DNA of 49,369 bases from Vulcanimicrobiota bacterium. GTDB lineage: Bacteria > Vulcanimicrobiota > SpSt-956 > JAKJGF01. Below are positions 1 to 49,369 of this stretch, one piece after another. Each line of letters begins with the position of its first letter. Position 1 is the first letter of the stretch. The position numbers and the translations under genes are program-made. Location: the NCBI GenBank assembly GCA_040217665.1, contig JBEHWP010000002.1:1-49369 (forward strand), given 5' to 3'. Below the pieces are notes generated by a model. The model was not told where the DNA came from and ran no database searches. It saw only the letters and a program-made list of their open reading frames with translations.

Positions 1-10
1 TAGAGAGACA

Positions 11-2440: not shown

Positions 2441-2456
2441 TGGCACGTAACCTGCT
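2441..2456 (+). promoter_or_regulatory. Sigma-54 (-24/-12) promoter candidate upstream of the chemoreceptor/kinase gene string
   Basis: TGGCACGTAACCTGCT versus consensus TGGCACG-N4-TTGCW. The GG and GC are correctly spaced and there is a single mismatch. It lies 104 nt upstream of the ATG at 2560, and a sigma-54 activator gene sits immediately upstream. Confidence 0.7.
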
Positions 2457-2559
2457 TTATAATTTTTAAATATACGGGAATGTTGATTTTTGTTAAGTTC
2501 CTTCATAATTGTCCCGTGACAGGCATTAAAATAATAAAAACATACAAGGAGGGTATTAC

Positions 2560-4893: not shown

Positions 4894-4942
4894 ACTCTAT
4901 ATAATCGGTCACTTTTTTGAAGATTAATCAGGGGGGTAATAT

Positions 4943-7225: not shown

Positions 7226-7249
7226 TAATTTTCTGAAATCAGTAAAAAA

Positions 7250-8989: not shown

Positions 8990-9026
8990 TGTATATTAAC
9001 AATAATTATAAAAAAGGTGTATCATT

Positions 9027-10568: not shown

Positions 10569-10580
10569 ATTTTCTGGAGC

Positions 10581-10833
10581 AGTACTAAGGATCTGTCAGA
10601 AAATAACTACATCATAGTTACAGTTTATATCGTGACGCGTGACGCGTAACGCGTCACGCGAGGATATTAAAATTTCTAACAATTTGCCGGAGTTGTTTTT
10701 CTTGCAGTCCTAAGTATCCGTCAGGAAATAAATATATCTTAATTACAGTTTATATCATGACGCGTGACGCGTGACGCGAGAATATTGATTGTTCTAAAAA
10801 TTTGCCGGAGTTATTTTTCTTTCAGTCCTAAGA
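10581..10833 (+). repeat. Family 2 element: about 2.1 tandem copies of a ~120-bp unit, each containing a GC-rich heptamer array
   Basis: Unit boundaries AGTACTAAGG (10581), AGTCCTAAGT (10706), AGTCCTAAGA (10824). Cores CGTGACGCGTGACGCGTAACGCGTCACGCGAGG (10631-10663) and ATGACGCGTGACGCGTGACGCGAG (10757-10780). Shared tail TTCTAA.AATTTGCCGGAGTT.TTTTTCTT.CAG. Confidence 0.85.
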
Positions 10834-10857
10834 TACAAATAATATTCAGGAGTAATA

Positions 10858-12435: not shown

Positions 12436-12742
12436 AAAAAATAATCAATTTGCAATAATAATAAAAACCTTGTATAATATATAACCGAAATTACAGGTTT
12501 ATAATTTTACGGCTTTGTACAAAATCTATCAGGCAGTTGCCTCTGTTTATCAGGGTAAATATGAGAATATCGTAAACAGATTTCTGATAATTGTACATAT
12601 ATCAAAAGACTCAGACTGGAGTCTTTGAGTAAGATTACTCTAAAAGCCCATACCCTATAGTAAAGCAATAGCAGATCGATTGTCGGTGTGGGAACAGTCA
12701 CATGATAACATATTGGTTAATTATATTAATGGGGGGGCTCAT

Positions 12743-14140
12743 ATGGCAGAGGACGAGAAATATCAGAAACTTTTAAAGTATCTTACTCCCAGAAGTCTTT
12801 GCTGGATAATACATGATTTATTAACTCAGAGAGAATTACAGGTAATTTTAAATAAATCCGGTATTAAATATGGTGGTAGAGAATTTAGCTCTATACCTTC
12901 CAGTGTTGTAGTGGAAGATCTTGCACAGCTTTTCTTTAAAAAATCCGATTTTGGTAATTTTATGACCAGGACTTTTTTAAAGAAGAGATTAAAAGAGAAA
13001 AGTAAATTGACAAAACTGGATCTTCCTGCTATTAAGGACTATACAGGTGATTGTAAGAATATTTTCAATCAGAACAGAGTCGGAAAAGTTCTTTGGGTTA
13101 TTCTGACAGATGAAAGACCTGATGTTAATGATTACGGTCTTGAATTTATTCAGCACGTTGAAAATATAATAAGATCTCTGGAGAAAAAAGAAGTAAGAAA
13201 AGTGAAAAAAGTTTCCAGACCCAAACAGGAAGCAGTGAAACCCAAAGATGATACCCTGTACAGGGAACAGATTAAAAAGCTGGAAGAAAAGCTTAAAAGT
13301 CAGGATAATACACTTAACCAGCTTTCAGATGTTAATAAAAAATTCAGAAAGGATACGACAAATCTTAATCAGAGAATTGAGTTGTTGCAGAAAGAAAAAC
13401 AGAAAATTTTTGAAGAACTTGAAGATGCCAAGAAAGCTCTTTTTGATCAGGAAATGCTTTTTAAAGATAAAAAAAGACTTGAAAAGGAAAGTAAAGAACT
13501 CAGAGAGACTCTCAATAATCAGCATGATATATACAGTTCTTTAATTCTGCTTCAGAGAAAAAATTTACAGCTCAGAGGGGATCTTATCAGGGCGGAAATA
13601 AAATATAAAAAGGTCCAGAGACGTATTATTCCTGAAAGTCATGAAGAAATTCAGACCGCTACGGATAACCCGAGAGTCGGCGTTTTTGTAGATGTTCAAA
13701 ATATATATTATGGTGCTAAAATTGGCTATCAGGCAAAATTGAATTTTGAGACTCTTTTAAATCTTGTTACTAAAGACAGAGAAATAGTAACAGCCATAGC
13801 TTATATAGTTCAGACTCCGGAAATAAACCAGGATGAATTTATAAAAACGCTGGATAGAGTCGGTTATACGGTAAAATCAAAAGATTTAAGACGGAGAGCC
13901 GATGGCTCTGCTAAAGGAGACTGGGATCTTGGTATTGCTATGGATATAATATCTTTACAGGACAGACTCGATGTTGTTGTTCTTGTAAGCGGAGACGGTG
14001 ATTTTACCGAACTTATAAAGGTTCTTAAGAGAAGTAACATAACTGTTGAAGTAGCAGCTTTCCAGCATAATACATCGAGAGATTTAATAGAGATTGCAGA
14101 TACTTTTTATCCGATGGAAGAAGATATGATAATTATATAA
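12743..14140 (+). CDS. NYN/LabA-like (PIN-related) domain protein with a long N-terminal region and K/E-rich coiled coil
   Basis: C-terminal VGVFVDVQNIYYGA ... VVLVSGDGDFTELIKVLK is the NYN/LabA signature. I chose the ATG at 12743 (GGGGGGG run 5 nt upstream) over the TTG at 12680 given by the ORF track. Confidence 0.75.
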   Translation: MAEDEKYQKLLKYLTPRSLCWIIHDLLTQRELQVILNKSGIKYGGREFSSIPSSVVVEDLAQLFFKKSDFGNFMTRTFLKKRLKEKSKLTKLDLPAIKDYTGDCKNIFNQNRVGKVLWVILTDERPDVNDYGLEFIQHVENIIRSLEKKEVRKVKKVSRPKQEAVKPKDDTLYREQIKKLEEKLKSQDNTLNQLSDVNKKFRKDTTNLNQRIELLQKEKQKIFEELEDAKKALFDQEMLFKDKKRLEKESKELRETLNNQHDIYSSLILLQRKNLQLRGDLIRAEIKYKKVQRRIIPESHEEIQTATDNPRVGVFVDVQNIYYGAKIGYQAKLNFETLLNLVTKDREIVTAIAYIVQTPEINQDEFIKTLDRVGYTVKSKDLRRRADGSAKGDWDLGIAMDIISLQDRLDVVVLVSGDGDFTELIKVLKRSNITVEVAAFQHNTSRDLIEIADTFYPMEEDMIII

Positions 14141-17805: not shown

Positions 17806-19689
17806 ATGTCATTATACTGTGAATGCGGGCGGGAAAATAATACCTCTGCACAGACCTGCACAAATTGTGGCCGTCCTCTGTTAAATCCCACATTAAATTG
17901 TAACTTAAAAACGGGAGCAATCCTGAATAAACGTTACGTCATAAAAAAAGTCATAAAAGATATAGGTACAGACGCACTCTATGAAGCTATAGACGAAGGT
18001 GTCGGCAATTCCCTCTGTCTTATAAAAGAAATTTTTATATCAGATTCTTTAACTGAAAGGGAATCACCGTCAGAACTTTTTATGAGAGAAGCAAACATTC
18101 TTAAGACATGTAAACATAAAAATCTTCCTGCTCTGAGGGATTATTTTATGGAACAGGACAGATATTATCTTGTCATGGATTATATTGACGGCAGTGATCT
18201 TGAAACCCTTATTGTGAAATATATACCTGAGAATGTGCCTGAAAATAAGGTAATTGAATGGGCAAAACAACTTATAGACCTTATGGAATATCTTAATGAA
18301 AACTGTTCCTCTATGTATAAAGATTTAAATCCGGCGAATATAATGGTAGATAAACATCATGAAGAACTGAAATTATTGGATGCAGGTATATCTAAGACGG
18401 GTAAAACAGAAAAATGTAACATGTCAAATGATATTTACTCCCTTGGTGTTATTATGTACTGCCTGCTTACGGGGAAGTTTTCTATGGATCTTAAACCTGT
18501 GGCAGTAAAAGATATTAACAGCCATGTTTCCGATGAACTTAATAGAATAGTCATGAAAAGTCTTTCCAAAAAAGAAGAAAGATACAGAAGTTTTAGAGAT
18601 TTAAAAGATGATCTTGCTATGGTTCCCGGTAAAAAAGAACGGGAAACCAGCAAAATTTCCATATCACCGTTGATCCCTAAAAAAAGGCATATACCATATT
18701 ATTCTTATCGCAGGAAAAATGGGAAAAATCTCTTTAATAAAGTAAAAACATTATGTGCGGTGATAGTATGTTTATGTGTCATTATTGGAGGAAAATATTT
18801 TATAGACTACTATAGCAGGTCTTCTGTAATGCCGGTTCCTGAACAAACTCCTGGCAAAATTTTAACCGGTCATACACCGGAACAGACAAAAGTCCCTGAT
18901 GTTTCTTTTAATGATAAAACAGACAGTGACGGAAAAAAGAAAGAAGAGAAAGTAGAAAAAAATAATATATCTTCTCTGAAAAGTCTGAGTAATTCATATT
19001 TTGAAAGCAGAGATTATAATAAAGCTATTTCAGTGAATAAACAGATTATTTCTGCCTGTCCTTCTGATATTTCTTCCCATATATCTATAGGAACATCTTA
19101 TTACAAAATTGATGAATATAAAATGGCAGAAAAATGGTTTAAGAAAGCTCTTTCTCTTAAGCCATCCGAAAGAGACAGAACTTTCATTGTTTCAAGAATG
19201 ACTGCTATTTATATGACAGAGGGACAGAAAAATATGTCAAAACAGAAATATGATGAAGGTGCCCTCTGTTTCAGAAAGGTTTTACATATAGATGGGAATA
19301 ACAGTAAGGCAAAGGAAGGTCTGGCAACATGTTTTTTACATAAAGGTATATTAAGTTTAGATGCACATAATTATATGGAAGCAAGAACATGGTTTAATCG
19401 GGTTATATCATTGAATATAAATGGACAGCTCATAAAAGATGCAAAAAACTATATCTCTTCCATAGAAAGAGATCTCGGTTATGCTTCAAATAATTATTAT
19501 AAGAGTGATTATTATCAACAGACCTATTATAATGATTATAATTATGAGTGTCAGGACTCCGGTAATCAGAAGAGCAATAAGTCCCCTGTAAATTCTGAAT
19601 TACATTATGATAATATTTCTGCAGGTGGAAGTCAGGGAAAGTCGAATAATTCAGAAAGAAATTCTGATACTGAACTTCATTATGAATAG
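17806..19689 (+). CDS. Ser/Thr protein kinase with N-terminal zinc ribbon, one TM segment and a C-terminal TPR region
   Basis: CECG..x11..CTNCG zinc ribbon. Kinase subdomains (LIKEI Lys, YKDLNPANIMV catalytic loop, LLDAG for DFG, DIYSLGVIMYCLLTG). TM LCAVIVCLCVIIGG. TPR-like repeats. RBS AAGGAG. Confidence 0.8.
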   Translation: MSLYCECGRENNTSAQTCTNCGRPLLNPTLNCNLKTGAILNKRYVIKKVIKDIGTDALYEAIDEGVGNSLCLIKEIFISDSLTERESPSELFMREANILKTCKHKNLPALRDYFMEQDRYYLVMDYIDGSDLETLIVKYIPENVPENKVIEWAKQLIDLMEYLNENCSSMYKDLNPANIMVDKHHEELKLLDAGISKTGKTEKCNMSNDIYSLGVIMYCLLTGKFSMDLKPVAVKDINSHVSDELNRIVMKSLSKKEERYRSFRDLKDDLAMVPGKKERETSKISISPLIPKKRHIPYYSYRRKNGKNLFNKVKTLCAVIVCLCVIIGGKYFIDYYSRSSVMPVPEQTPGKILTGHTPEQTKVPDVSFNDKTDSDGKKKEEKVEKNNISSLKSLSNSYFESRDYNKAISVNKQIISACPSDISSHISIGTSYYKIDEYKMAEKWFKKALSLKPSERDRTFIVSRMTAIYMTEGQKNMSKQKYDEGALCFRKVLHIDGNNSKAKEGLATCFLHKGILSLDAHNYMEARTWFNRVISLNINGQLIKDAKNYISSIERDLGYASNNYYKSDYYQQTYYNDYNYECQDSGNQKSNKSPVNSELHYDNISAGGSQGKSNNSERNSDTELHYE

Positions 19690-19748: not shown

Positions 19749-20975
19749 ATGCAAAGATTTATATTTTCTGTTATTCTTTTAAGCCTGTTAATAACACCGG
19801 CTATAATCCTGAAAGCATCTGAAAGTGACGATCTGCTGAAACAGGCTGTAGAGCTTATAAAAATCGATAAACTTGACTGGGCTCTCGAACTTGTAAGAGA
19901 GGTTATACAGAAGGATCCCCATAACCCGAAAAGTTATCACTGTGCCGGTATGATCTATTTCAAGAAAAAGAATTATCCCCTTTCGATAAAAGAGTATAAA
20001 ATAGCCATATCTTTTAAGCCCGATTACAGTGTTGCCTGGTACAATCTCGGTCTTTCCTACGAAAAGCTTTTACGGTATCAGCAGGCATGTGATGCTTTTA
20101 CAAAAGCAAGGGATCTTTATAAAGCACAGAAAAATAAAAGAGATTATGAAGATGCACTGCAAAAACTTGCCCGTCTTCAGGAAATGGGTTATGTTTCCAC
20201 ATCTCCTGAAAAAGTTAATGAAACAGAAATGATCTTTATTGAAGAAGGAGAATTCTTTATGGGAAGTGATAGAGCCGGTTCTGAAACAGATGAAAAACCA
20301 TGTCGTAAAGTATATCTTTCTTCTTACTGGATAGATAAATATGAAGTGACAAACGGTCAATACTGTAACTTTTTAAATAGTAAGGGTAAATCATGTAATA
20401 ACGGACATGTATGGATTCATATAGATGACAGATCAGGGGAATGCAGAATTAAAAAGGTCAATAACACCTTTGTAGTAGTTCCCGGCTATGAAAACCATCC
20501 TGTAACCTTTGTAACATGGTACGGTGCTTCTTCCTATGCAAAATGGCTGAATAAAAGATTACCTACAGAAGCTGAATGGGAAAAAGCAGCCAGAGGAACA
20601 GACATAAGAATCTTTCCCTGGGGAAGTAACTGGGACAGTGGCAGATGTGCAAATAAATATAATTGTTTCGATAAAAAGACAAAGCCTGTCGGATCCTATC
20701 CGGAAGGAGCATCTCCCTATGGAGTAATGGATATGGCAGGAAATGTTCTCGAATGGTGTTCCGACTGGTACGGATATTACACTGTAATGGAAGAGCCGGT
20801 AAAAAATCCTCACGGTCCTTTTGCCGGTGTAACAAAGATTTTACGGGGCGGTAGCTGGGATGATAATTATTATTACTGCAGAATTACCTTCCGCGGTAAT
20901 TACAGCCCTGATAATTATGATAATGATATAGGGTTTCGATGTGTAACATCGGCACTTACAGATAAAAAGAAGTGA
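19749..20975 (+). CDS. Secreted TPR + formylglycine-generating-enzyme (FGE/SUMF1) domain protein
   Basis: Signal peptide. TPR repeats. FGE motifs: MIFIEEGEFFMGSD, YWIDKYEVTNGQY, HPVTFVTWYGASSYAKWLNKRLPTEAEWEKAARG, GNVLEWCSDWY, RGGSW, GFRCV. RBS AGGAGG. Confidence 0.85.
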   Translation: MQRFIFSVILLSLLITPAIILKASESDDLLKQAVELIKIDKLDWALELVREVIQKDPHNPKSYHCAGMIYFKKKNYPLSIKEYKIAISFKPDYSVAWYNLGLSYEKLLRYQQACDAFTKARDLYKAQKNKRDYEDALQKLARLQEMGYVSTSPEKVNETEMIFIEEGEFFMGSDRAGSETDEKPCRKVYLSSYWIDKYEVTNGQYCNFLNSKGKSCNNGHVWIHIDDRSGECRIKKVNNTFVVVPGYENHPVTFVTWYGASSYAKWLNKRLPTEAEWEKAARGTDIRIFPWGSNWDSGRCANKYNCFDKKTKPVGSYPEGASPYGVMDMAGNVLEWCSDWYGYYTVMEEPVKNPHGPFAGVTKILRGGSWDDNYYYCRITFRGNYSPDNYDNDIGFRCVTSALTDKKK

Positions 20976-34009: not shown

Positions 34010-35728
34010 ATGTCTTATGATGACGAAATCAATCTCGAAGATAATGATGAAGAAGAAGATTTACTCGACAGTGACGATACTGATGATGGTACTTCGAATA
34101 AATCTCAGACAAAATCTGTTTATGTAATATCCTTTTTACTCGGTGTTATACTCTGCCTGGGAGCTGTTATATTTTACCTTTCAACAAGAGATACTCTTCA
34201 GGAACTTTCCTTTATGCCTGAAGAATCTCAAATGATTTTGAAAATGCAGGTTGAACCGGGTATAAAAAAGGTAATATTTGCGGAACAGTATAAAAAAATC
34301 CATGAAAATCCTGATACAGAGAAGGGCATATATGCAATCATTGATAAACTTATGATAACGGTCTTTTTCAGAGAACCACGGCAGGGTATTAACATAACGG
34401 CAGATTTCCTGCCCTATGTTGACCCGGAAATGGCAGTGGCAGGGTTTAATATGGGAGCAAACCTTGCTGTAAAAATGCTGAGGCTTAATAACCCGGTAGA
34501 TAAAATTTTTACACTTGGCGCTTTCCGTATAAATAACAGAGAAAAAGTGGATGAATTTTTTAATAAGGTTCAAGTCCAATACGGAGCAACAGAGCAGGAA
34601 ATGAACGGTCATAAAATATTTGTTTCCACAAATTTTTCCTATGTTTTTTACAGGGATTTTATTCTTATGGCAACCACACCTGATAAACTACTTCTGTCTC
34701 TTGATACGGTTCAGAAAAAACATAAATCCATATTGACAGATGAAAAATTTCAGCTTTACAGAAAGAAAATATCTAAAGATACCGTAGGGTTTGCTTATGT
34801 CAATTTAAATTATTTAAGAGAAGAATTCTGTAATATTTCAAAGATGTCACAGGAGTCTAATTTTGTTCAATTTTTTAAATCAGTAAAAATTATGGGTGCT
34901 GCTCTGGCACTTTCCGAGAAAGGACTTTCACTGGAAACACTGATGATTCCAGAAGAAAATATAATAAATCCTGTGGCGGTAAAATATTTTTCACAGACAG
35001 CAAAGGAACCTGTGAGTCCGACCTTTTTTGCAAAGGACAGTACTACAAATCTTATTGTTCTTAGCAATATAGTCGAATTATTTGAAGTATATACAGGCCT
35101 TACTGAGGATATAATGCCGGGGTTAAAAGATAATATGGAAAATCTTGTAGAAAGTAGATTGAGTCTTAATCTGGAAAGAGATATATTTGCATCACTTACG
35201 GGAGAACTTGCCATAAGTTACCCTTCCAGAAATGCAGCAGAATTAGGTATAACTCTACTTACAAACCCTCAGAAGCTTTTGCAGGGACTCATTGTAATGA
35301 TTGGAGTAAAACAGGATTCACGCCTTGAAAGCCTTATTGCCGGTGCAGACAGTCTTATGTCTTTACTTGCTCCTCCTCCTCAGTTTAAAGGTGTGAGTAT
35401 TATTACTGCTCCTGACGGCAGTATTTCCTATGCCTGTACCGATCATTTTATAATACTCGGTATGGGTAATTCCCGTGCCAGAATACAGGAACTTATACTG
35501 ACGAAAAAAGATAATCTTCAGTCTGTAAATAATCTTTATAAAGAAAGAACCCTGGTTTATTCAAAGGAAGTACTGGGACTTACCTTTATAAACATTAAAA
35601 TGCTCTATGACGGACTGGGAGCAGGAGCGGGTAAATCTGTGGAAAAAACTCCTGAAATATGGCTTGTAAACAGTAAAGCAGATAAGGGGATAAAAGCCAC
35701 TCTCTATATTCCCTTTAAGATTATTTAA
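34010..35728 (+). CDS. Hypothetical membrane-anchored protein (acidic N-terminus, one TM, large extracytoplasmic domain)
   Basis: Long ORF with RBS AGAGGTG. D/E-rich N-terminus, then TM VYVISFLLGVILCLGAVIFYL. Size and layout recall DUF3352-type proteins, but I cannot verify that. Confidence 0.6.
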   Translation: MSYDDEINLEDNDEEEDLLDSDDTDDGTSNKSQTKSVYVISFLLGVILCLGAVIFYLSTRDTLQELSFMPEESQMILKMQVEPGIKKVIFAEQYKKIHENPDTEKGIYAIIDKLMITVFFREPRQGINITADFLPYVDPEMAVAGFNMGANLAVKMLRLNNPVDKIFTLGAFRINNREKVDEFFNKVQVQYGATEQEMNGHKIFVSTNFSYVFYRDFILMATTPDKLLLSLDTVQKKHKSILTDEKFQLYRKKISKDTVGFAYVNLNYLREEFCNISKMSQESNFVQFFKSVKIMGAALALSEKGLSLETLMIPEENIINPVAVKYFSQTAKEPVSPTFFAKDSTTNLIVLSNIVELFEVYTGLTEDIMPGLKDNMENLVESRLSLNLERDIFASLTGELAISYPSRNAAELGITLLTNPQKLLQGLIVMIGVKQDSRLESLIAGADSLMSLLAPPPQFKGVSIITAPDGSISYACTDHFIILGMGNSRARIQELILTKKDNLQSVNNLYKERTLVYSKEVLGLTFINIKMLYDGLGAGAGKSVEKTPEIWLVNSKADKGIKATLYIPFKII

Positions 35729-39803: not shown

Positions 39804-42800
39804 TTAATGTTCTCCCAGTGTTATCTTGTCTGCATAATTTTGAAGTGGTATTTTAGCAAATATCTTCTTATTATTTCTATCGAATACAGCTATCGAATAA
39901 TATCTTTTTCCCTGACTTCCAAGTTCTGTAAGATATATATATATATAGCCTCCGGGATTAATAACTAAATCAACAGGATAGCCGGGGAGTTTAAAACGTT
40001 CTTTTAATGCCATGTCAGATATTTGTATAAAAGCAATTTCCTGGGTTGTTTGATTGAGAAGGTATAATTCCTGATTATTTGCAGTGATTATAATTTTAAC
40101 AGGGCTGAATTTTTCTGAACCGGTAGAAATTTTTTTTATGTCCTCTTTGCCTGTACCGATATCTATAATACCTATTTCATCAGTGTTATTATAAATTATA
40201 AATACCTTTTGAGCACCTGCAGTAATATCACATGCCCCTTCTTTTATTGGAATTTCACTTTTTATGGTGAACGTATCCGTCTCAATAGTCGTAAGAAGAC
40301 TATTTTTTTCATTGCTGTTTATAATATAAAAATATTTTCCGTCAGTTGAAAGGGTTGCTCCTGAAGAATTTACAGGTATATCTTTTTCTGCAATCGTTGA
40401 TCTGGTAGTTAAATCTATGACCTTAAATTTGTTATTGCTGTTACTTAAGAGATAAAGTTTTGTTTCATCAGGTGATAAAGCCATAAATGTAATCCTTATG
40501 CCACTGTCAAATTTAGATAAAAATTTACCTGACGATTTATTGCTTGTTGTATCCAGTATATATACCATACTGCCCTTATCTGTAACAAACAACTGTTTTT
40601 TCTTTAAAGCACCGGACACAAGATTACTGTCGAAACTTAAATTAATTTTTTGATTTATTCTATTTTTATTTATATCCAGTACGGAAAGTATTTTCTCAGA
40701 ACTCATAGAAATATATATTTTTTTACCTTTTGCAGGGATATTTTTATAATAGGTGTAACCGAAATATCCGCCTGTTAACACACATACAATAATTGTCGCT
40801 ATGAGTCCGTATTTCAGGAATAATTTCCCCAGTTCTACACTGAGAGGTGTAATATTTCCTATTTCTTCCATAGAAGCTTTTCTCTTATCCTGCATTTCTT
40901 TCTGCTTTTCAAGCAGTGAAGAGTCAAGCTCAACCATGGTGATTTTGTTCATTCTCTCCCTTATTGTTTTAATATCTCCTCTTTCTGCAGGGTTTATTTT
41001 GACACATAAATCTACTATTGCTTCAACATTACCCGATATATAAGGATTGAGTTTTCTTACAGGACTGAATTCATAGGGTTGTTTTTCCGGGTTAACACCT
41101 GTTAATAAATAATAAATAGTAGAGCCCAGTGCAAACACATCGGCTTTTGTATTGGTTATATCAACTTCTGTTTGTTCAGGAGCAAAATAACCTATAGTTC
41201 CATACATAGGAAACACAAGTTCCTGTTCAACAAGAAATATCTCTCTTAATCCGTAATTTATGAATTTTACTTCTCCGTTATAAGAGATCAGTATGTTTTT
41301 GGGATTTAAATCACCTGCTACAATGGGAGGTTTCTGGCTGTGCAGATAATAAATAGCTTCACAGACCTTTGTTAATATTGCAAAAACTGTTGTAGAAGGC
41401 ATACGGCTCTGTTTCTCCAGGTGACTTTTTATTATTTCTTCCAGGGTGTAACCTTCTACCTGTTCCATAACAATAAAAAGCCTTATAATACTTCTGTCAC
41501 CGGAATAATTGAAGAAATAATCTGTTACTTTAACCAGGTTCGGGTGGTTTAGATTTTTTAATTTACCACCCAGCTTGACGAAATTTGAAATAACTCTTTC
41601 TCCGAGTCTTGCATTCTCTTTAGGTGGTTTGTACTGTATTTCTTTAATAATTTTTGATACTTCCTGTCCTTCTGTATTATCCTGTTCACTCGTATCAAGC
41701 ACCATGTAAACTGCTCCGGAGTAATCCTTATGGAGAATTTCAGCAATTTCATACCTTTCTTTGATGGATGTCCCTTCCTGAAGTGGTGAAAGCAGGGGAG
41801 GTGTATCAGGTTTATTCTGACATATAGATTGTTTTTGTTCTCTCCAGTCTGCTGCAATGCCTTTCAGGGGAGGTCCTTTTTTTGCCGGTGGTGGCAGAAG
41901 CGATTCCACTGATTGTGTTTCCTGTTCTTTTTCATCCTGTTTTTTTCTTGCATATTTCTGGGCCAGTTTCTGTGCAAGACTTGCTCCACTTTTCTTTTCT
42001 TCGGAGGGCTTTTCTTCTGTCTCTTTTTTCTTTTCTTCGGAAGGTTTTTCTTCTATCTCTTTTTTCTTTTCTTCAGAAGGTTTTCCTGGAGCAGAAGGAG
42101 AGGGCTTGACAGGAGGAAGTTTTGATGTTAATTTTGCAAATAATTCGGCACTTTTTTCTCTTGATTCCTTTGCCTTCTGGGCTACCAGCTCAGGACTGGA
42201 TGATGTATCTGTGTCTTCTACTTTTTTAAGTTTAAGTGCTTCTGCTGCTGCCATATATTGTTTAACATCAAATCTCCTGGTCCCTCTCTTGGGAGCGCTG
42301 TGGAATTTACCTTTTAGACCGGTATCATCATAGCTTTCTTCATCATAAAAAACAGGTTTTTCAAGGCCGGGACTCACAGATTTTTCATCTGATAATGTGA
42401 ATATATCAACAGGTTTTGCTTCCGGTGGAGCCTCAGATGGCTCTGCTATATGGGCAGAAAAATCGGAAAGCGTATCTATTTTTACTTCTTCCTGTGTTGA
42501 TGGCCCATGGCCTTGAGGTGTTTTGGAAAAAGAAAAGCTTTTTTTACTTAATTTTTCTTTAATATTTGTTACAAATTTATCAACCTTATCAGGTGTGGGA
42601 GTAGCTTTGGCCTGTGGAGATTTCCCCGGTGATATGGCAAAAACAGATTTCGGTCTCTTGCCCATAGAAAACTGGAGAAGAAAATTGGAAACTTCCTGTA
42701 ATCCCGGTCTGTCTTCCTGTCTTGGTGAAAGACATCTTGCTATGAATTCATTCAGTTCTGGAGATGCCTCTTTGTTATAATGTGAAACCTGTGAGAAAGC

Positions 42801-43475
42801 TCCTGGATATTTTTCGGGATTTCTGCCTGTAAGGAGATAATACATAGTAGCACTGAGGCTGTAAACATCTGTTTTTTCATTCATTACCCCCTTGCCAATC
42901 TGCTCTATCGGACTGAACCCCGGCGTTTTACTGCAGTAGCCTGTCCTTAACAGGTTGCCAAGACCATAATTAAACAGTTTGATCTGTCTGTCCGGCGTTA
43001 ACATGATGTATTTCGGTTTTAAAACACCGAAAGCAACCGGTTCCGTATGCTGTGTGTTTAAATATTTCATGGCACCGCATACCTTGATCATATGTTTCAT
43101 CAGTACTTTAATCGGTAGAGGCTCTTCGTGTAAATCAGTCTGGAATATATCCTGAAGTGTTCTGCCTTTAATATATTCCATGACGACATAATGTCTTTTC
43201 TCGGATTTTCCCTCAGGTATTTCTGTAAAATATTCATAAATTTTTATCAGGTTCGGGTGTCTTACTTCCGAAAGTGTAGCCAGCCTTTTCCAGAATAACT
43301 CATTTCCTTCAATTTCTTTCTCCGACTGAGGAATAAATTCTTTGAGTGTTAGCTGCTCATGTGGAGGGTCAAGATCTTCTACCAGATAATGGACTTCTTT
43401 CCCGTCACATACTATTAAATCTCTGATTTCATATCGATCACAGAGTATACATCCTGCATTTAACATTTCAGACAT
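39804..43475 (-). CDS. Tandem kinase-like protein: two Ser/Thr-kinase-fold domains (both atypical), low-complexity linker, TM segment, C-terminal YVTN-type beta-propeller
   Basis: Domain 1: LTLKEF, VAFGVLKPKYIML, KLFNYGLG, DVYSLSATMYYLLTG. Domain 2: IIKEI, VAGDLNPKNILI, KFINYGLRE, YFAPEQ, DVFALGSTIYYLLTG. TM GLIATIIVCVLTGGYFGY. About 6 repeats of the type KLYLLSNSNNKFKVIDLTT. Start set at ATG 43475 (AAGAGAG upstream); the ORF track gives GTG 43484. Confidence 0.85.
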   Translation of the reverse strand: MSEMLNAGCILCDRYEIRDLIVCDGKEVHYLVEDLDPPHEQLTLKEFIPQSEKEIEGNELFWKRLATLSEVRHPNLIKIYEYFTEIPEGKSEKRHYVVMEYIKGRTLQDIFQTDLHEEPLPIKVLMKHMIKVCGAMKYLNTQHTEPVAFGVLKPKYIMLTPDRQIKLFNYGLGNLLRTGYCSKTPGFSPIEQIGKGVMNEKTDVYSLSATMYYLLTGRNPEKYPGAFSQVSHYNKEASPELNEFIARCLSPRQEDRPGLQEVSNFLLQFSMGKRPKSVFAISPGKSPQAKATPTPDKVDKFVTNIKEKLSKKSFSFSKTPQGHGPSTQEEVKIDTLSDFSAHIAEPSEAPPEAKPVDIFTLSDEKSVSPGLEKPVFYDEESYDDTGLKGKFHSAPKRGTRRFDVKQYMAAAEALKLKKVEDTDTSSSPELVAQKAKESREKSAELFAKLTSKLPPVKPSPSAPGKPSEEKKKEIEEKPSEEKKKETEEKPSEEKKSGASLAQKLAQKYARKKQDEKEQETQSVESLLPPPAKKGPPLKGIAADWREQKQSICQNKPDTPPLLSPLQEGTSIKERYEIAEILHKDYSGAVYMVLDTSEQDNTEGQEVSKIIKEIQYKPPKENARLGERVISNFVKLGGKLKNLNHPNLVKVTDYFFNYSGDRSIIRLFIVMEQVEGYTLEEIIKSHLEKQSRMPSTTVFAILTKVCEAIYYLHSQKPPIVAGDLNPKNILISYNGEVKFINYGLREIFLVEQELVFPMYGTIGYFAPEQTEVDITNTKADVFALGSTIYYLLTGVNPEKQPYEFSPVRKLNPYISGNVEAIVDLCVKINPAERGDIKTIRERMNKITMVELDSSLLEKQKEMQDKRKASMEEIGNITPLSVELGKLFLKYGLIATIIVCVLTGGYFGYTYYKNIPAKGKKIYISMSSEKILSVLDINKNRINQKINLSFDSNLVSGALKKKQLFVTDKGSMVYILDTTSNKSSGKFLSKFDSGIRITFMALSPDETKLYLLSNSNNKFKVIDLTTRSTIAEKDIPVNSSGATLSTDGKYFYIINSNEKNSLLTTIETDTFTIKSEIPIKEGACDITAGAQKVFIIYNNTDEIGIIDIGTGKEDIKKISTGSEKFSPVKIIITANNQELYLLNQTTQEIAFIQISDMALKERFKLPGYPVDLVINPGGYIYIYLTELGSQGKRYYSIAVFDRNNKKIFAKIPLQNYADKITLGEH
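41994..42085 (-). repeat. 36-bp in-frame tandem repeat (~2.6 copies) in the linker of the tandem kinase-like gene
   Basis: Plus-strand units start at 41994, 42030 and 42066 (CTTTTCTTCGGA.GG.TTTTCTTCT.TCTCTTTTTT). They encode KPSEEKKKEIEE / KPSEEKKKETEE / KPSEEKK. Confidence 0.85.
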
Positions 43476-43609
43476 AAATTTCACTCTCTTAAAGAAAAAA
43501 TTGAAGGATTCTTCTAGATTCTAGAAATTTTTCTATTTTCCTTTTTAAGATATTATGTGGTGTGAAGAAAGTTCTTCTATATGTTCTTTATAGAAATGAA
43601 CAGTTTTTA

Positions 43610-44170
43610 CTAACGTTTACATATGATGTTTTCTTTATATAATTTATAGATAGACTTTATTACACCCGTATATTCTCTTACCATTACCTGTCCTATTTCT
43701 CTTATAGAGGTTTTCCCGTCAACCCATGGAAGAACTGTCAGTTCAGCTGTTTTTATATACATAGGCTTGCCTGTATTTATAACTTCAAATACAAGGTCCA
43801 ATGAATAAATTAAATCCTTCATTTTTGAAATTTCTGCAAGTTCTTTATTTATAGTCTCTATTAAAAATGGTGTTTCATAGGTAACATTTTTTTTGAATTT
43901 TTCTGACTCTTTGAAGTCTGTAAATTTTCCACTGCCATGAACCCAGGCAATGAAAGATAAAATAGCTCTTTCTCCTTCCAGAGCACCCAGTTTTGCATAG
44001 ATAATATTACCGTCATGGAGATAAATTTCTCCTTTCTCTTTATCATCTTCCATTGTTAATAGGCCGGTAAGCTTTTGTTTATTTAATAAATCAATAATAA
44101 GTTCAGGTCCTGTTTCAGAGAGATCGAATTCTTTTGTTGTATATTCGCCGGTTTGATTGGATAAGTTCAT
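43610..44170 (-). CDS. DUF4388 (PATAN-like) domain protein
   Basis: LIIDLLNKQKLTGLLTMEDDKEKGEIYLHDGNIIYAKLGALEGERAILSFIAWVHGSGKFTDF follows the DUF4388 pattern (l.dllq....tG.L.......g.iy...G.i..A.....G..A...ll.w..G.F.f). Confidence 0.7.
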   Translation of the reverse strand: MNLSNQTGEYTTKEFDLSETGPELIIDLLNKQKLTGLLTMEDDKEKGEIYLHDGNIIYAKLGALEGERAILSFIAWVHGSGKFTDFKESEKFKKNVTYETPFLIETINKELAEISKMKDLIYSLDLVFEVINTGKPMYIKTAELTVLPWVDGKTSIREIGQVMVREYTGVIKSIYKLYKENIICKR

Positions 44171-44384: not shown

Positions 44385-45419
44385 TTATTTTTTATAACCT
44401 CTTAATATTCTCTTGAGTTTAACCGGATTGGGACAATTTTTTTCCAGAAGTGAGTTAACTTCTTCAAAGGATTCATGTTTAAATAAGATTTTATCAATAA
44501 GTCCATAGGCAGTATCATAGGAGATTAAATTCTTATCTTTTGCATATATTATTTCCGATGCAAGTTTTGATCTGTGATCATGGATTTCTACCATTCTTTC
44601 CCTGTAATCTGCTCTGCCGTTAAATAATATTATATTATAATAGCCTCCTATACCAACGTTTCTTCTTGACGCAGTGTTCAGTGCAGAAAGTAGTTCCATA
44701 GAACCTTCTACACGATCTATATTGCCACGTCTTTCAGGTAAGGATTTATGTGATGTATAATCTGAAAGAAGGAGGTTAACAGTATCATATCCCGAACCGT
44801 CTGCAAGATATATGACCTGAACTGCTTCCCGGAAGAACTGTATCAAAGAAAAATGAAATATACGGAATCCTTCTTTATTATCGTAACCTGCAAGAAGGCC
44901 GGCATTTAAAAATATCGGTTTTACATCCCCTCCCCGGTCCTTCCAGGTAATAAGATTATGTACCTGGCTTATTGTGTCTTTATCTTTTATTTCCACTTTT
45001 TTTCCTTTTTCCTCATAAGAGCCTTTGAGATAATCAAGAGCATTAAAACCAAACTTACCTTTGAGCTGCTGATCTATATGATTTCTTTTCATATTTCTGA
45101 TAATATCGAAGACCGTAACAGAAAGCTCTTCTATTGTTTTATATTGTTTCGGAACCTTAGAGCATTTATCTTTAAAATTTTGATAATCTTCTCTGAGTGT
45201 TTTAAAAATGGTAAATTTTATTTCGTCTCCCACTGTTGATGTTCCTGTATTTCCATAAGCAGCAACAAGACCTGTATCCACTGTAATTTCAGGAGGGATA
45301 CATGGTTTTATCTTGTCCGATACATATATTTTCATATCTTCTTCATTCCAGCCACGCTGTTCGTCACACATCATAATACCGGAATAATCATTGAATTTCA
45401 TTGCATTTATTGATGTCAT
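44385..45419 (-). CDS. Proteasome-beta-like Ntn-hydrolase-fold protein (long form, Met-Thr N-terminus)
   Basis: By-eye alignment to proteasome beta/HslV. MT-SINAMKFNDYSGIMMCDEQ (Thr1, acidic residue ~17). SDKIKP (Lys33-like). AAYGNTGTSTVGDEI (Gly47 region). LADGSGYDTV (Ser129-Gly130). ASRRNVGIGGYYNIILFNG (Asp166/Ser169 region). About 345 aa, with a central insertion and a C-terminal helical tail. Confidence 0.7.
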   Translation of the reverse strand: MTSINAMKFNDYSGIMMCDEQRGWNEEDMKIYVSDKIKPCIPPEITVDTGLVAAYGNTGTSTVGDEIKFTIFKTLREDYQNFKDKCSKVPKQYKTIEELSVTVFDIIRNMKRNHIDQQLKGKFGFNALDYLKGSYEEKGKKVEIKDKDTISQVHNLITWKDRGGDVKPIFLNAGLLAGYDNKEGFRIFHFSLIQFFREAVQVIYLADGSGYDTVNLLLSDYTSHKSLPERRGNIDRVEGSMELLSALNTASRRNVGIGGYYNIILFNGRADYRERMVEIHDHRSKLASEIIYAKDKNLISYDTAYGLIDKILFKHESFEEVNSLLEKNCPNPVKLKRILRGYKK

Positions 45420-45473
45420 ATATGTTAAATTCGCTCTCTTTCTTTAAGTAAGTTATTGTAAATAATTTCCTAT

Positions 45474-46520
45474 CTAAGACACCACACTTTCTTCCAGAGC
45501 AACATCTTTATAACCTCTTAATAAGAGTTCCAGTCTCCTGTGATTTTTAGCATAGTGCCACATGTTCTCTTCTACTGCTTCTTCTGTTTTTTCTTCAAAG
45601 AGCAGATCATTCAGCATTTCATAGGTTTTGTCTTTACTTAATTCATTATTAAGAAATCCTGTGACAATTTCAGTGGCCAGTTTTACTCTGTCATGACATA
45701 TTTCTTTATATCTTTCACTGTGACTGTCTTTTTCTCCGTCAAGATAGATAATATTGAAATATCCGCCAACTCCCAGGTAATAATCTCTTGCTTCTATGGC
45801 AGAAGCTATTAAAAGACACATACCTTCAACTCTGTCCATTCCATCTCTTCTCTGAGACAGATATTTATCTTTGAAATAATTTCCGAAAGCCCTTCCTGCT
45901 CCGTACACACCTTTACCGAGTGTTTCAAATCCTCCTGAAACCAGGGAAAGAACTCCTATGTCTGCCTTTATACAGTAAGTAGTAAGACCGTAATCTCTGT
46001 CATAGGCCATGAGACATACTTTATTTTCAAATACCGGTTTTAAGTAATCCCTTTTATCTTTGAAAGAAATTATCTTTCTGGCATCATCTTTTATAGCATC
46101 CTGCTTTATATCGATCTTTTTGCCATCAATTTCTACATAACCCTGATTAAAATCATCTGTAGTAAATCCGTAGAGCAGTTTTAAAATATCATCAACTTTT
46201 CTTCTTGTAAGTTCATGAATGGATGAAAGGGTTATATTTCCTATATCACCTGCCGTTTGTATTTTTTCTTTTCCGTCCGGCCCTGATACTATTGTATCTA
46301 TTTGCTTCTGAACCTTATTTATCACTTCATAATGTACTGAAGGATTCCCTACTCCTCCGTACACAGCTTCCATTTTAAGCAGATCAGCACTCTCACCTGA
46401 TAATAATGAATGAATACTATCAAGATAAAAACATCTTCGCCATCTTACATCTATATATTCTTCATCACTTAACATGGCTCCCGAATGCTTATTGAATTTT
46501 AACATATTAACTATGGCCAT
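45474..46520 (-). CDS. Paralog of the proteasome-beta-like protein, lacking the Thr nucleophile (MA- N-terminus)
   Basis: Collinear with its neighbour: MAIVNMLKFNKHSGAMLSDEE vs MTSINAMKFNDYSGIMMCDEQ; DRVEGMCLLIASAIEARDYYLGVGGYFNIIYLDG vs DRVEGSMELLSALNTASRRNVGIGGYYNIILFNG; both end ...L(L/I)LRGYK. Ala replaces Thr1, DSIHS replaces DKIKP, GKG replaces GSG. Strong RBS GGAGGA 7 nt upstream. Confidence 0.65.
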   Translation of the reverse strand: MAIVNMLKFNKHSGAMLSDEEYIDVRWRRCFYLDSIHSLLSGESADLLKMEAVYGGVGNPSVHYEVINKVQKQIDTIVSGPDGKEKIQTAGDIGNITLSSIHELTRRKVDDILKLLYGFTTDDFNQGYVEIDGKKIDIKQDAIKDDARKIISFKDKRDYLKPVFENKVCLMAYDRDYGLTTYCIKADIGVLSLVSGGFETLGKGVYGAGRAFGNYFKDKYLSQRRDGMDRVEGMCLLIASAIEARDYYLGVGGYFNIIYLDGEKDSHSERYKEICHDRVKLATEIVTGFLNNELSKDKTYEMLNDLLFEEKTEEAVEENMWHYAKNHRRLELLLRGYKDVALEESVVS

Positions 46521-46794
46521 TATAATTCCTCCATCTGACTGGTTATATTATTTTTATAAAACACATAATCTAGATAATAATTACATGAAAAAACATATCC
46601 AATATTATATATCACATATTGAATTCTTGCAATGATTGCGTTTAAAAATGACCGGTGATTTTACATATAGATGAAATTAATTAAATGCCCTTACGTTCTG
46701 AGTTCCGGGTTTTGGAGCTTATTAACCCATCATTTATCACCCTATCACCGGAGACTCTTATTCTACAGACCTGATGCCCGGTCATATAAAATAT

Positions 46795-47412
46795 TCATCT
46801 GGTAATAAATATATCTTCATATTCAAGGCTTTCCCCTGTATGAAATTCTATTTCTTTTTCGTAGAATTCTATGGATACCAGTTTCCCCCCGGCATTGCCA
46901 TCTATATGAATTAACTCTGTTCCCGGTTTTACTACAAAGAAAAGCTGTCCTTCTCCTCCTTCTATGGAAACCTCTCCTGTTTCCGTTACAAATACTTTAT
47001 AGTTATTTATATCTACTGTTTTCCCTACTTTTAATTGGGTTCTGTCAGGCACAGATGTTTTAATTTTTTCTTTGTTGAAGAGGGCACATTCTCCCTCTTC
47101 TTCCGTTAACCATCCCGGTTTCCCGTCTTCAAAAGTAAGATACCATTCATCCCAGAAACAATCTTCTCCTCTGTAACGTACTCTTCCTACAACTTCAAAA
47201 TTTTTCCCTTTAATTTTCCCTTTAACCCCTATGGCAAATCTGCTGGGATAATCGGCAAGTTTAGGATATTTACCTGCCACACTCAGACCGAAATCCTCAA
47301 TATAAAGCGTTTGATCACAGTATGGGCATACTGTGCTTCTTACATATACACTTGTGAGTTTCAATACTCCGCCACATGCCGGACAATCCATTTCTCTTAT
47401 TTGCATTTCCAT
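46795..47412 (-). CDS. DUF4178 domain protein with N-terminal zinc ribbon
   Basis: CPACGG..x13..CPYC followed by GKIKGKNFEVVGRVRYRGEDCFWDEWYLTFEDGKPGWLTEEEGE, the characteristic DUF4178 core (W.EW.l.f.dG...WL.e). Confidence 0.7.
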   Translation of the reverse strand: MEMQIREMDCPACGGVLKLTSVYVRSTVCPYCDQTLYIEDFGLSVAGKYPKLADYPSRFAIGVKGKIKGKNFEVVGRVRYRGEDCFWDEWYLTFEDGKPGWLTEEEGECALFNKEKIKTSVPDRTQLKVGKTVDINNYKVFVTETGEVSIEGGEGQLFFVVKPGTELIHIDGNAGGKLVSIEFYEKEIEFHTGESLEYEDIFITR

Positions 47413-47742: not shown

Positions 47743-49369
47743 TCATTGATCATTTTCCTGCCATTTAGACCAGTCTTCATTATAATAATAGGTAATTATA
47801 CTGTTATCAAGTGTGTTTACCTGAGTTTCCCGCCATTTCATATCTTCGCTGAATACAAAAAGACTTTTTATTGTTTCTTCATTTAGATATTTGACAGGCA
47901 CTTTTACTTTACATCTGTTTATGTCAAATCTTTCATTCGAAGCAATGACAAACCCCCAGTCACCGAAGCTTGGTACAAGAGTATGGATCGGTTTGACATT
48001 AAATCCTGCATGTTCTATTGTATTATATATACACCAGTAAGTATTTACGGAAAAAAAGGTTGAAGTGCTCTGAACTACCATAATACCGCCTCTTGACATG
48101 TGGTGACCTGTTATCTGATAAAATGTTGTACTATAAAGTTTTGATAGTTTTTCATTACCCGGATCCGGTAGATCTACAATTATTACATCAAATTTTTCAT
48201 TTGTATTTCTCATGAATGTCCATGCATCCTGAGAAATATACTCTACTTTCGGATCTTTAAAAGAATTTTTATTGAGAGAAGCTATAATCGGATAAGTAGA
48301 ACATAATTTTACCATGTCAGGATCTATATCTACGAGTTTTACCTTTTTCACATCACTGTATTTTAATATCTCCCTCAGAGCAAGGCCGTCTCCGCCACCG
48401 AGAACAAGTATGTTTTCCCTTGAAGGGGCCAGAGTCATTGCAGGATGAACCAGTGTCTCATGGTAACGGTATTCATCAATGGAACAGAATTGTAAATTCC
48501 CGTCAAGAAAGAGATTGACTTCTTCTTTCCATTTTGTAAGAACTATTCTCTGATATTTTGTCTGAAAGGCATATATAATATCCTCTTCATAAAGTGCACT
48601 TTCGGCAAAAGATATTATTTTAAAAGAAAAAATAAGTCCCGTTATAAGCAGGATGCCTGATATGGTTGTCCATATAATAAGTGTATTCCTCCAGAGAAGT
48701 TTTTTGTAAAAATATATTATATTTGCTGCAGTAACTGCTATATTTAATAATCCGAAGAAAAAAGCTGATTCCATAAGTCCAAAATGGGGGAGAAATAATA
48801 TTGGAAAACCTATAGAAGCTACAAGGGCTCCGAGATAATCAATAGACAGTACTCTTGCAAGGTTTACTTTAAGCGTTCCATATTCCTGTATTATTCTCGT
48901 TATAACAGGTATTTCAATACCAATAAGAGAACCTACTATTATCAAAAGACCATACATGAAAAAAGAATAAACCTCTGTATAGGCAAAGGCAAAAAAGAGA
49001 ATGAAAGCAGAAAAACCTCCTGATATAGCAATCCAGATTTCTATGGCAATAAAATTATCTAGCAAATTATGTTCTATATATCTGGACAGATAGGAGCCGA
49101 GGCCCATGGCACTCATAAATACTCCTATGGTTATGGAAAATTGAAATATTGTATCTCCAATAAGGTATGATGAGATTGTGCCAAAAAGAAGTTCATAGCT
49201 TATACCACAGACAGAAATAAAAAAAACAGATATCAGTAATAATAAATGTTCATTTTTAATATTTTTTTCCGAAAATTCTGTCAGAGATTTTTCAGCTTTT
49301 TCCTCATTATTCTCCGAAGATTCTGTCGAGGAATTTTTACTTTTTCCCTCCGAAGATTCTGTCGAGGAA
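47743..49369 (-). CDS. Spermidine-synthase-like polyamine aminopropyltransferase with an N-terminal multi-TM domain (5' end outside the window)
   Basis: C-terminal SpeE motifs: YHETLVHPAM, VLVLGGGDGLALREILKY, VKLVDIDPDMV, DVIIVDLPDP. N-terminal TM bundle. My manual translation upstream of the track start (49116) stays open to 49369 (...HLLLLISVFFISVCGISYELLFGTISSYLIGDTIFQFSITIGVF-MSAMGLG) with no Met, so the gene is truncated by the window edge. Confidence 0.85.
   Translation of the reverse strand, partial: SSTESSEGKSKNSSTESSENNEEKAEKSLTEFSEKNIKNEHLLLLISVFFISVCGISYELLFGTISSYLIGDTIFQFSITIGVFMSAMGLGSYLSRYIEHNLLDNFIAIEIWIAISGGFSAFILFFAFAYTEVYSFFMYGLLIIVGSLIGIEIPVITRIIQEYGTLKVNLARVLSIDYLGALVASIGFPILFLPHFGLMESAFFFGLLNIAVTAANIIYFYKKLLWRNTLIIWTTISGILLITGLIFSFKIISFAESALYEEDIIYAFQTKYQRIVLTKWKEEVNLFLDGNLQFCSIDEYRYHETLVHPAMTLAPSRENILVLGGGDGLALREILKYSDVKKVKLVDIDPDMVKLCSTYPIIASLNKNSFKDPKVEYISQDAWTFMRNTNEKFDVIIVDLPDPGNEKLSKLYSTTFYQITGHHMSRGGIMVVQSTSTFFSVNTYWCIYNTIEHAGFNVKPIHTLVPSFGDWGFVIASNERFDINRCKVKVPVKYLNEETIKSLFVFSEDMKWRETQVNTLDNSIITYYYNEDWSKWQENDQ

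Follow-up and report, generated by a model that had tools for sequence, protein, structure and literature searches.

Beyond the recognised bacterial members of the proteasome superfamily, Fuchs, Alva and Lupas described 22 further proteasome-like subfamilies (2021; Bioinformatics 37:4694, PMC8665760), several of them with C-terminal extensions, none with a propeptide and none with a known function or an AAA+ partner. Long insertions after helices H1/H2 were reported in that work for PHI, PMI-3 as well as PMI-4, and insertions between H3 and H4 for PMI-2 to PMI-6; no genomic context or co-occurrence pattern was found for these homologs, and the word 'paralog' does not appear in the text (PMC8665760). 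Here, we analyzed a stretch of 49,369 nucleotides from a Vulcanimicrobiota bacterium (GenBank assembly GCA_040217665.1, contig JBEHWP010000002.1, positions 1 to 49,369 of the forward strand; hereafter the window), in which two adjacent minus-strand genes, B and, downstream of it, A, encode paralogous proteins related to proteasome beta subunits. With a probability of roughly 0.7, we interpret B and A as a two-gene operon for a heteromeric proteasome-like N-terminal nucleophile (Ntn) hydrolase, in which A would be the catalytic subunit and B its obligatory non-catalytic partner; the complex is most likely an ATP-independent Thr-Ntn peptidase.

A preliminary description of this DNA had regarded the bacterial families as limited to HslV, Anbu, BPH and 20S subunits of 180–280 aa, a list which the 22 additional subfamilies have made out of date. 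It had also considered the pair to be of a type not yet described, and this cannot be claimed at the level of fold or superfamily, since subfamilies with the same insertion sites were already presented in 2021 (PMC8665760). The sequence itself agreed exactly with what had been given for the coordinates and strand of both open reading frames (ORFs), the gap between them and the GGAGGA ribosome-binding site of gene B (Table 1). The product of gene A starts with MTSINAMKFNDYSG... (MTSINAMKF...) and that of gene B with MAIVNMLKFNKHSG... (MAIVNMLKF...). No in-frame start for the gene A ORF is present upstream of 45419, as had been observed before, and hence there is no propeptide. BLASTP aligned both proteins with 28% identity over their full length (E = 4e-35); this end-to-end alignment, far above chance, demonstrates that the paralogy proposed earlier is real.

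In contrast to this clear relationship between A and B, annotation resources were uninformative. Scans of both proteins against Pfam, NCBIfam and PHROGs returned no usable match, and a phmmer comparison with the sequences of the PDB yielded spurious matches to designed repeat proteins only. Neither A nor B from the window matched the proteasome family PF00227 at E ≤ 1, and among 49 family members only three showed a weak match to it (best E 0.02). The 175 homologs of A retrieved at E ≤ 0.001 were all named 'hypothetical', with no Pfam domain in any of them, and the 42 homologs of B bore the same name.

The alignments of these homologs were used to build AlphaFold2 models, with a pLDDT (predicted local distance difference test) of 92.8 and a pTM (predicted template modelling score) of 0.89 for A, and values of 89.4 and 0.87, respectively, for B. 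Comparison with the PDB by Foldseek gave 991 matches at E ≤ 1e-3 for A and 899 for B. All of the 50 matches listed for each protein were proteasome or Anbu chains with a probability of 1.00, and their target-normalised template modelling (TM) scores were 0.63–0.79 for B and mostly 0.7–0.83 for A; at the top of these 50 were the 20S beta subunits of Mycobacterium and Rhodococcus, Anbu (5nyw), and Thermoplasma and eukaryotic beta subunits. As judged from the models, both A and B have the proteasome-beta/HslV-type Ntn fold with its alpha-beta-beta-alpha sandwich, in line with the fold predicted in the preliminary description. A Foldseek search of viral structures retrieved only generic phage HslV/proteasome-like proteins.

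The central insertion, previously estimated at 80–100 aa, turned out to be smaller: approximately 45–50 aa follow H2 and, together with somewhat longer H1/H2 helices, lengthen the stretch from the Gly47-equivalent to strand S6 by about 68 residues, while a further 12 aa or so are inserted between H3 and H4. The helical C-terminal tail of about 60 aa, on the other hand, was recovered in the model (Table 1). The fold is complete in B, which has the family-specific insert and, like A, the LRGYK motif at its C-terminus.

With regard to catalysis, all of the motif landmarks formerly listed for A were found, together with their counterparts in B. A contains D19/E20, SDKIKP with K36, AAYGNTGTS, DGSG (207–210), RRNVGIGG and a terminal LRGYK. 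In B, the corresponding elements are A2, DSIHS and GKG, with Ser at the position equivalent to Lys33, and Asp19/Glu20, Gly55/Gly58 and the LRGYK end are retained. An alignment of the A profile with mature human beta1 (PSMB6), weak at E 0.01 and employed for residue mapping rather than as proof of homology, placed T2 at Thr1, D35-K36 at Asp32-Lys33 and G208-S209-G210 at Gly128-Ser129-Gly130; Asp17 of PSMB6 was aligned with E20 of A, not with D19.

Conservation of these residues among 72 orthologs of A was nearly complete. Position 2, on which the earlier proposal hinged, is Thr in 71 of them and Ser in the remaining one, D19, K36, G56, T58, G59 and G208 are each present in 72/72, G210 in 71/72, and E20 and S209 in 70/72. 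G56, which is invariant in A and B and sits at the end of strand S5 in the model of A, is a candidate for the Gly47 oxyanion glycine. Furthermore, a scan of six-frame ORFs from loci L001–L084 and the window with a hidden Markov model (HMM) of the family detected 162 members, which separated into two classes. The first, of about 82 ORFs, has Thr2, Lys36 and Ser209 together; the second (B-type), of about 78, has Ala/Gly/Ser/Pro at position 2, Asn/Ser/His/Thr at position 36 and a variable residue at position 209, and still holds Asp19 and the glycines. Thr2, Lys36 and Ser209 are thus kept or lost jointly, with a single mixed exception. Such clean residue classes make A a credible Thr-Ntn enzyme and B an apparently dead paralog, and the loss of Thr, Lys and Ser throughout the B-type ORFs extends to the family what had been suspected for the window protein. 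Residues R28, G227 and E317 are invariant in B.

We also surveyed the occurrence of the pair, taking one genome per GTDB species. The 80 loci obtained, all from metagenome-assembled genomes (MAGs), belong to Vulcanimicrobiota, CSSED10-310, Planctomycetota, Ignavibacteria/Bacteroidota, Wallbacteria, Sumerlaeota, Gemmatimonadota and others. In about 72 of them, an A-type gene has a B-type gene immediately upstream in the same orientation, so that the pair is a conserved unit whose neighbours vary by lineage. Of 75 pairs, 32 have a 4-nt overlap between the stop codon of B and the start codon of A, and another 5 an overlap of 1 nt; most of the other spacers are shorter than 35 nt. Such spacing is the pattern of translationally coupled subunits. 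Single MAGs often contain three to four loci of the family.

An exhaustive HMM search of 1.84 billion representative proteins retrieved 379 relatives at E ≤ 0.001 (representatives at 50% identity), 188 of them at E ≤ 1e-30. A second tier of relatives was found in Candidatus Woesearchaeota (DPANN archaea), with 305–327 aa, and all of those examined are A-type. In the one archaeal member whose gene context was inspected, represented by two contigs with the same gene, the gene is solitary and located between those for rpS15 and alanyl-tRNA synthetase. Two archaeal relatives pass the gathering threshold of PF00227 (29 bits versus 22.4) and in this way connect the family to canonical proteasomes by sequence, although only transitively, whereas the bacterial forms have no such link of their own. 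A neighbour-joining tree was built from 51 A sequences, 45 B sequences and 15 archaeal ones. In it, both B and the archaeal clade were monophyletic in 200/200 bootstraps; the monophyly of B indicates that it originated in a single ancient duplication. The distance matrices of A and B from 43 loci were correlated (r = 0.85, Mantel p ≤ 5e-4), with B being the more divergent partner in 98% of the comparisons and evolving at about 1.3 times the rate of A.

The distribution of key residues over this tree was complementary. In the archaeal homolog, which is solitary, the catalytic T/K/S set occurs together with an invariant Arg; bacterial A has kept T/K/S and lost the Arg (Met being commonest at that position, 45%), and B has the Arg in 100% of sequences and has lost T/K/S. 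On the sequences compared, a pattern of this kind would be expected if a homomer had subfunctionalised into an obligate heteromer. The proposal of an active/inactive heteromeric module, already put forward in the preliminary description, is therefore strengthened by three lines of evidence, namely adjacency with coupling, co-evolution and complementary residue retention.

Several observations weigh against the heteromeric peptidase. The link to known proteasomes at the level of sequence profiles is weak: against the PDB, the profile of the A family gave the marginal PSMB6 match mentioned above, with the N-terminal stretch of the alignment below threshold, and hhalign comparison of the A and B profiles with Escherichia coli HslV returned nothing significant (probability <1%), a template of only one sequence being too weak for this purpose. 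A profile of the archaeal clade performed no better against the PDB (E 0.23). The Asp166/Ser169 strand proposed earlier for A stood in part: position 254 (Asn254 in the window) is Asn, Asp or Glu in 70/72 orthologs, with Asn commoner than Asp, and the Ser169-equivalent is Val, Cys or Ile and is not conserved. The correlation between the A and B distance matrices is expected for any co-inherited genes and is no proof of contact, and the physical association of the two proteins is inferred from genomic evidence. The insert of A that follows H2 is, by model secondary structure, at the 'pore loop' site, which lines the proteasome cavity and where an insert may block ring formation or form a cap (PMC8665760); since insertions following H1/H2 could interfere with the assembly of a ring (PMC8665760), a proteasome-like barrel is not assured. 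Finally, A occurs without an adjacent B at L009–L011, L013, L065 and L068, and these bacterial cases, together with the solitary archaeal clade, suggest that A-type proteins are probably able to function alone. A cryptic B upstream of the solitary A in L010 was sought and rejected (hhalign probability 0.2%). The ORF at that place (L010:4502-5566, plus strand, 355 aa) has no Pfam match and carries an HExxH-like 'HEYGH' motif, by which it may be an unannotated metallopeptidase.

The solitary A genes of these bacteria and of Woesearchaeota, as well as the invariant residues that B has of its own and its faster evolution, would fit an alternative in which both proteins form no complex, A being a homo-oligomer and B a pseudoenzyme (an assembly chaperone, an inhibitor/decoy or a binding protein) that is merely co-regulated with it. 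However, about half of the pairs have overlapping stop and start codons and adjacency is strictly 1:1 across phyla, both features being typical of complex subunits; B keeps the entire fold, the insert and the LRGYK motif, and MAGs with a solitary A, among them those holding the L009–L011/L013 paralog, carry B-A pairs elsewhere too. We hence consider this alternative improbable.

For the heteromeric peptidase, we propose the following mechanism. As Thr is permissive as a second residue, Met1 of A would be removed by methionine aminopeptidase, exposing the alpha-amine and hydroxyl of the Thr as in HslV, so that no autoprocessing would be needed. The Thr, Asp19/Glu20 and Lys36 (the Thr1-Asp17-Lys33 triad), along with the Gly56 NH as oxyanion hole and Ser209, would then cleave peptide bonds. 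B would derive from one duplication of an A-like gene, having lost Thr, Lys and Ser while retaining the fold along with certain ancestral residues no longer present in A; by analogy with proteasome alpha subunits or the inactive eukaryotic beta subunits, it may act as a structural, gating or substrate-binding subunit, made at about 1:1 with A through translational coupling. The complex would probably work without a dedicated AAA+ unfoldase and, since nothing points to an ATPase of its own, would most likely act on peptides, on unfolded proteins or on specific targets.

A bolder reading, which we advance tentatively and hold possible rather than probable, is that the pair is an independent bacterial re-invention of the inactive/active design of the proteasome, in which an ancestral homomeric Thr-protease, of which the solitary gene of Woesearchaeota would be a remnant, was duplicated once and subfunctionalised into an obligate ATPase-independent hetero-oligomer with a new quaternary structure. 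The shape of this structure would be set by the post-H2 insert and by helical bundles at the C-termini, and the three to four paralogous pairs per genome would allow mixed assemblies.

As regards the chemistry, A, with or without B, might instead be a sequence-specific transpeptidase/ligase or a processing enzyme for a single or a few defined protein targets, resembling Connectase, rather than a protease of general degradation. The superfamily includes ligases in the form of Connectase, and homologs confined to certain lineages can be specific for few targets (PMC8665760). A closed barrel may be incompatible with the large inserts and the helical bundle at the C-terminus, no unfoldase partner was found among the neighbours, and a small family (379 of 1.84 billion) with three to four loci per MAG fits specialised rather than housekeeping roles; Ser/Thr kinases recurring beside the pair could also hint at regulatory targets. 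Nevertheless, the hallmarks of Connectase are absent, given that H1/H2 are present and that the large insert follows H2 instead of lying between S3 and S4. Moreover, there is no conserved candidate substrate gene beside the pair, and the kinase association is weak (5/101 immediate neighbours), with the other kinase of the window 25 kb away and a high background. The ligase function named as an option in the preliminary description is thus possible, favoured by no result obtained here, and in our judgement unlikely.

In order to find a third partner, flanking ORFs were clustered and a Pfam census was carried out on 101 immediate neighbours from 54 dereplicated groups of loci. This revealed lineage-specific synteny only, with no universal third gene and no Pfam family occurring more than seven times among the 101. 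In agreement with the absence of partner genes reported earlier for the window, no AAA+ unfoldase, HslU, Mpa/ARC/PAN or Pup gene was detected there or among the 101 neighbours (the only AAA+ protein in the window is an NtrC-type sigma-54 activator, 42 kb off), and the domains of Anbu operons (ATP-grasp, alpha-E, transglutaminase-like) were absent from the window and from the top 25 Pfam families of the census.

Some of these contexts could point to small-molecule chemistry. In Ignavibacteria/Bacteroidota (L001:6107-11726, L050–L052, L057, L066, L075, L077), the B-A pair lies inside an apparent kynurenine-pathway cluster, with a PF04199 cyclase upstream and kynureninase (Aminotran_5/KYNU_C) and a flavin adenine dinucleotide (FAD) monooxygenase downstream, and M20 peptidases, TldD/PmbA and oligopeptide transport or binding proteins are scattered among the neighbours. 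Penicillin acylase and glutamine amidotransferase are Ntn enzymes acting as amidohydrolases, and the pair could likewise act on a small molecule, a short peptide or an amide metabolite rather than on proteins, the kynurenine-formamidase-like nature of the cyclase and the peptide-related neighbours being in its favour. However, these contexts are lineage-specific, each representing essentially one evolutionary event, and A retains the full proteasome-type Thr/Asp/Lys/Ser set, which to our knowledge is known in this fold family only for peptide-bond chemistry on polypeptides (proteasome, HslV, BPH, Connectase). We regard an amidohydrolase as very improbable, and each of the three alternatives weighed here as less well supported than the heteromeric peptidase.

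Other neighbours were recorded as well. In CSSED10-310 and related MAGs (L016, L017, L021–L024, L026, L028, and likewise L003 by called genes), a polyprenyl synthetase gene is situated just downstream of A, at offsets of −6 to +6 nt; this proximity or overlap points to an operon of three genes in the CSSED10-310 lineage. In the window, gene A is followed downstream in the same orientation, at a distance of 901 nt, by the gene for a protein with two Ser/Thr kinase domains; the C-terminal part of this protein appears by eye to consist of a membrane segment followed by beta-propeller-like repeats. Kinases of other architectures (AAA_16-TPR, PAS, beta-propeller) flank the pair in various unrelated lineages, at L014, L020, L030/31, L034/37, L047, L061/62 and L063. 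We downgraded this association on account of the low frequency in the census and of the second window kinase, a sign that this genome is rich in kinases.

The orthologous Vulcanimicrobiota locus L007 shares with the window the DUF4388 neighbour (7207-7806) and a DUF4178 gene upstream. The DUF4178 protein and the aminopropyltransferase encoded upstream of B may constitute a separate polyamine-related module. In the window as well as in a CSSED10-310 MAG (L003:174-1826), a gene for a DUF3352 protein is present within approximately 5–9 kb of the pair, which may be coincidence. A scan of the region for promoters and terminators gave counts at shuffle level and was uninformative, with 23 promoter-like sites against a shuffled expectation of 19.2 ± 4.8.

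With regard to the hosts, the window is 95–99% identical to three Vulcanimicrobiota MAGs, one of which is labelled Synergistia. Further MAGs carrying family loci, namely L005 (CAYSLJ010000084.1), L008–L009, L043, L063 (JAKJGF01), L049 and L065 (JAJTBE01), are labelled 'Synergistia' or 'Bacillota' and share genes at 85–99% identity with Vulcanimicrobiota MAGs, or else have several paralogous loci, as is typical of Vulcanimicrobiota; their taxonomic labels may be unreliable.

Table 1. Features of the B-A locus and of the window (nucleotide positions) and elements of the A model (residue positions, marked aa).
Feature	Position	Strand	Description	Basis
Gene A	44385-45419	minus	344 aa, Met-Thr start, putative catalytic subunit	ORF
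Gene B	45474-46520	minus	348 aa, Met-Ala start, apparently inactive paralog with predicted proteasome-beta fold	ORF
B-A intergenic spacer	45420-45473	minus	exactly 54 nt	sequence
Shine-Dalgarno GGAGGA	46527-46532	minus	6 nt 5' of gene B ATG	sequence
Sigma-70-like promoter candidate	46604-46632	minus	TTGCAA-17-TATAAT, 10/12, ~84 nt upstream of gene B	weak
A strands, N-terminal part	aa 3-8, 13-18, 21-32, 37-39, 52-57		S1, S2, two short strands (21-32), S4, S5	model
A helices H1, H2	aa 61-85, 96-123		H1, H2	model
A insert after H2	aa ~124-172		~45-50 aa; helix 127-132, hairpin 134-143, helices 147-158 and 167-170	model
A strands S6-S9	aa 173-208			model
A helices H3, H4	aa 211-223, 236-253		H3, H4	model
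A short insert H3/H4	aa ~224-235		~12 aa, carries helix 227-230	model
A strands S10 and S11	aa 262-279			model
A helix H5	aa 282-295			model
A C-terminal extension	aa 301-339		three extra helices; protein ends LRGYKK	model
Signalling cluster	1-14140	plus	includes a methyl-accepting chemotaxis protein and four PAS/HisKA-type histidine kinases	
NtrC-type sigma-54 activator	206-1930	plus	within the signalling cluster	
NYN-domain protein	12680-14140	plus	486 aa, within the signalling cluster	
Second Ser/Thr kinase	17806-19689	plus	Pkinase and TPR	
TPR and FGE-sulfatase-domain protein	19749-20975		follows the second Ser/Thr kinase	
DUF3352 protein	34010-35728	plus		
Dual kinase	39804-43484	minus	1226 aa, two Hanks-type Ser/Thr kinase domains (56-268 and 641-801)	Pfam
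DUF4388 protein	43610-44170	minus	186 aa, between gene A and dual kinase	
Zinc-ribbon and DUF4178 protein	46795-47412	minus	upstream of B, same strand	
Polyamine aminopropyltransferase	47743-49116	minus	membrane-anchored, upstream of B, same strand	NCBIfam PRK03612, 557 bits

What appears to be new is the conserved, translationally coupled pair of a dead and an active subunit, its single origin, the complementary retention of residues in comparison with solitary archaeal sisters and the multi-locus expansion in single genomes. The origin of the alpha/beta (inactive/active) architecture of the proteasome is an old open question for which natural intermediates are scarce, and a second, independent duplication in the same superfamily would have led here to a coupled active/dead pair with an unduplicated DPANN sister clade for comparison. 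Two soluble proteins of about 345 aa would offer a tractable test of whether a heteromeric self-compartmentalising protease can originate by duplication and complementary loss. The analysis also supplies gene context missing from the 2021 catalogue of proteasome homologs (PMC8665760), and draws attention to an unannotated protease family, modelled in neither Pfam nor NCBIfam, from little-known phyla (Vulcanimicrobiota, CSSED10-310, Planctomycetota and Ignavibacteria); biotechnological use would be possible if it were a specific ligase like Connectase.

Among the known systems, the 20S proteasome resembles the pair in being a duplicated pair of one fold with one Thr1-catalytic and one inactive member, encoded side by side in the case of actinobacterial prcB-prcA, and the best structural matches among the 50 listed are Mycobacterium and Rhodococcus beta subunits. 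Unlike 20S alpha, however, B has no N-terminal H0 gating extension, its first residues being in register with those of A, and it groups with A rather than with alpha. A in turn differs from 20S beta by its lack of a propeptide and its length (344–348 aa for the two proteins, compared to ~200–280 aa of 20S subunits), no Mpa/ARC/PAN or Pup genes are near the pair, and A and B of the window fall below PF00227. An identity of the pair with 20S alpha/beta was rejected because of the missing H0 in B, the missing propeptide in A and the branching of B with A.

HslV shares with A a bacterial origin, a Met-Thr start, a nucleophile exposed by Met removal (predicted for A) and the absence of a propeptide. 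It is a compact homo-dodecamer of subunits of ~176 aa with no inserts, encoded beside hslU, whereas A and B are twice as long, carry inserts, pair a Thr-bearing protein with its apparently dead paralog and lack HslU. On the basis of the inserts in these 344/348-aa proteins, the lack of an HslU-like neighbour and the hhalign probability below 1%, we rejected HslV. Anbu, a high-ranking structural match (5nyw), is also bacterial, lacks a propeptide and has an extended C-terminal helix. It is a single subunit of about 240 aa whose gene is in an operon with ATP-grasp, alpha-E and transglutaminase-like genes, and was rejected since the domains of that operon are absent from the window and from the top 25 Pfam families of the census. 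Connectase (DUF2121) resembles A in being a divergent proteasome homolog that is restricted to particular lineages and has Thr1, inserts and an extension at the C-terminus. It has no H1/H2, bears a two-helix insert between S3 and S4, is monomeric and is confined to methanogens (PMC8665760), and an assignment of A to it was rejected given the presence of H1 and H2 and of a large insert after H2.

The closest likeness is to PMI-3, PMI-4 and PHI, with which the pair was compared by architecture description only. Common features are the proteasome-beta core with Thr1/Asp17/Lys33 and no propeptide, the insert sites after H2 and between H3 and H4, hosts including bacteria of the Planctomycetes-Verrucomicrobia-Chlamydiae (PVC) group, 'other bacteria' and archaea, and the lack of an AAA+ partner. 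No later work characterising homologs of the PMI/PHI type came up in a search of the literature. Accessions were sought for 20 family members, and OQA18071.1, HPZ09567.1, HPQ39039.1, MBD3355034.1, MBW2964981.1, MBW3015471.1 and MFH1174956.1 were recovered. The bacterial member OQA18071.1, which by its accession series we take to date to about 2017, would predate an nr snapshot of August 2020. That was the snapshot clustered by Fuchs et al. at BLAST P ≤ 1e-10, with at least 10 nr70 representatives required per cluster and OGZ26396.1, HDY66466.1 and WP_012956871.1 among the named cluster representatives (PMC8665760); none of the recovered accessions is one of these named representatives. PMI-4 alone comprises 411 nr70 sequences (PMC8665760), and with 379 representatives in total, the present family is unlikely to be identical with that large cluster. 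In contrast to PMI-3, PMI-4 and PHI as described, the active gene is here nearly always accompanied by an inactive paralog in the same operon.

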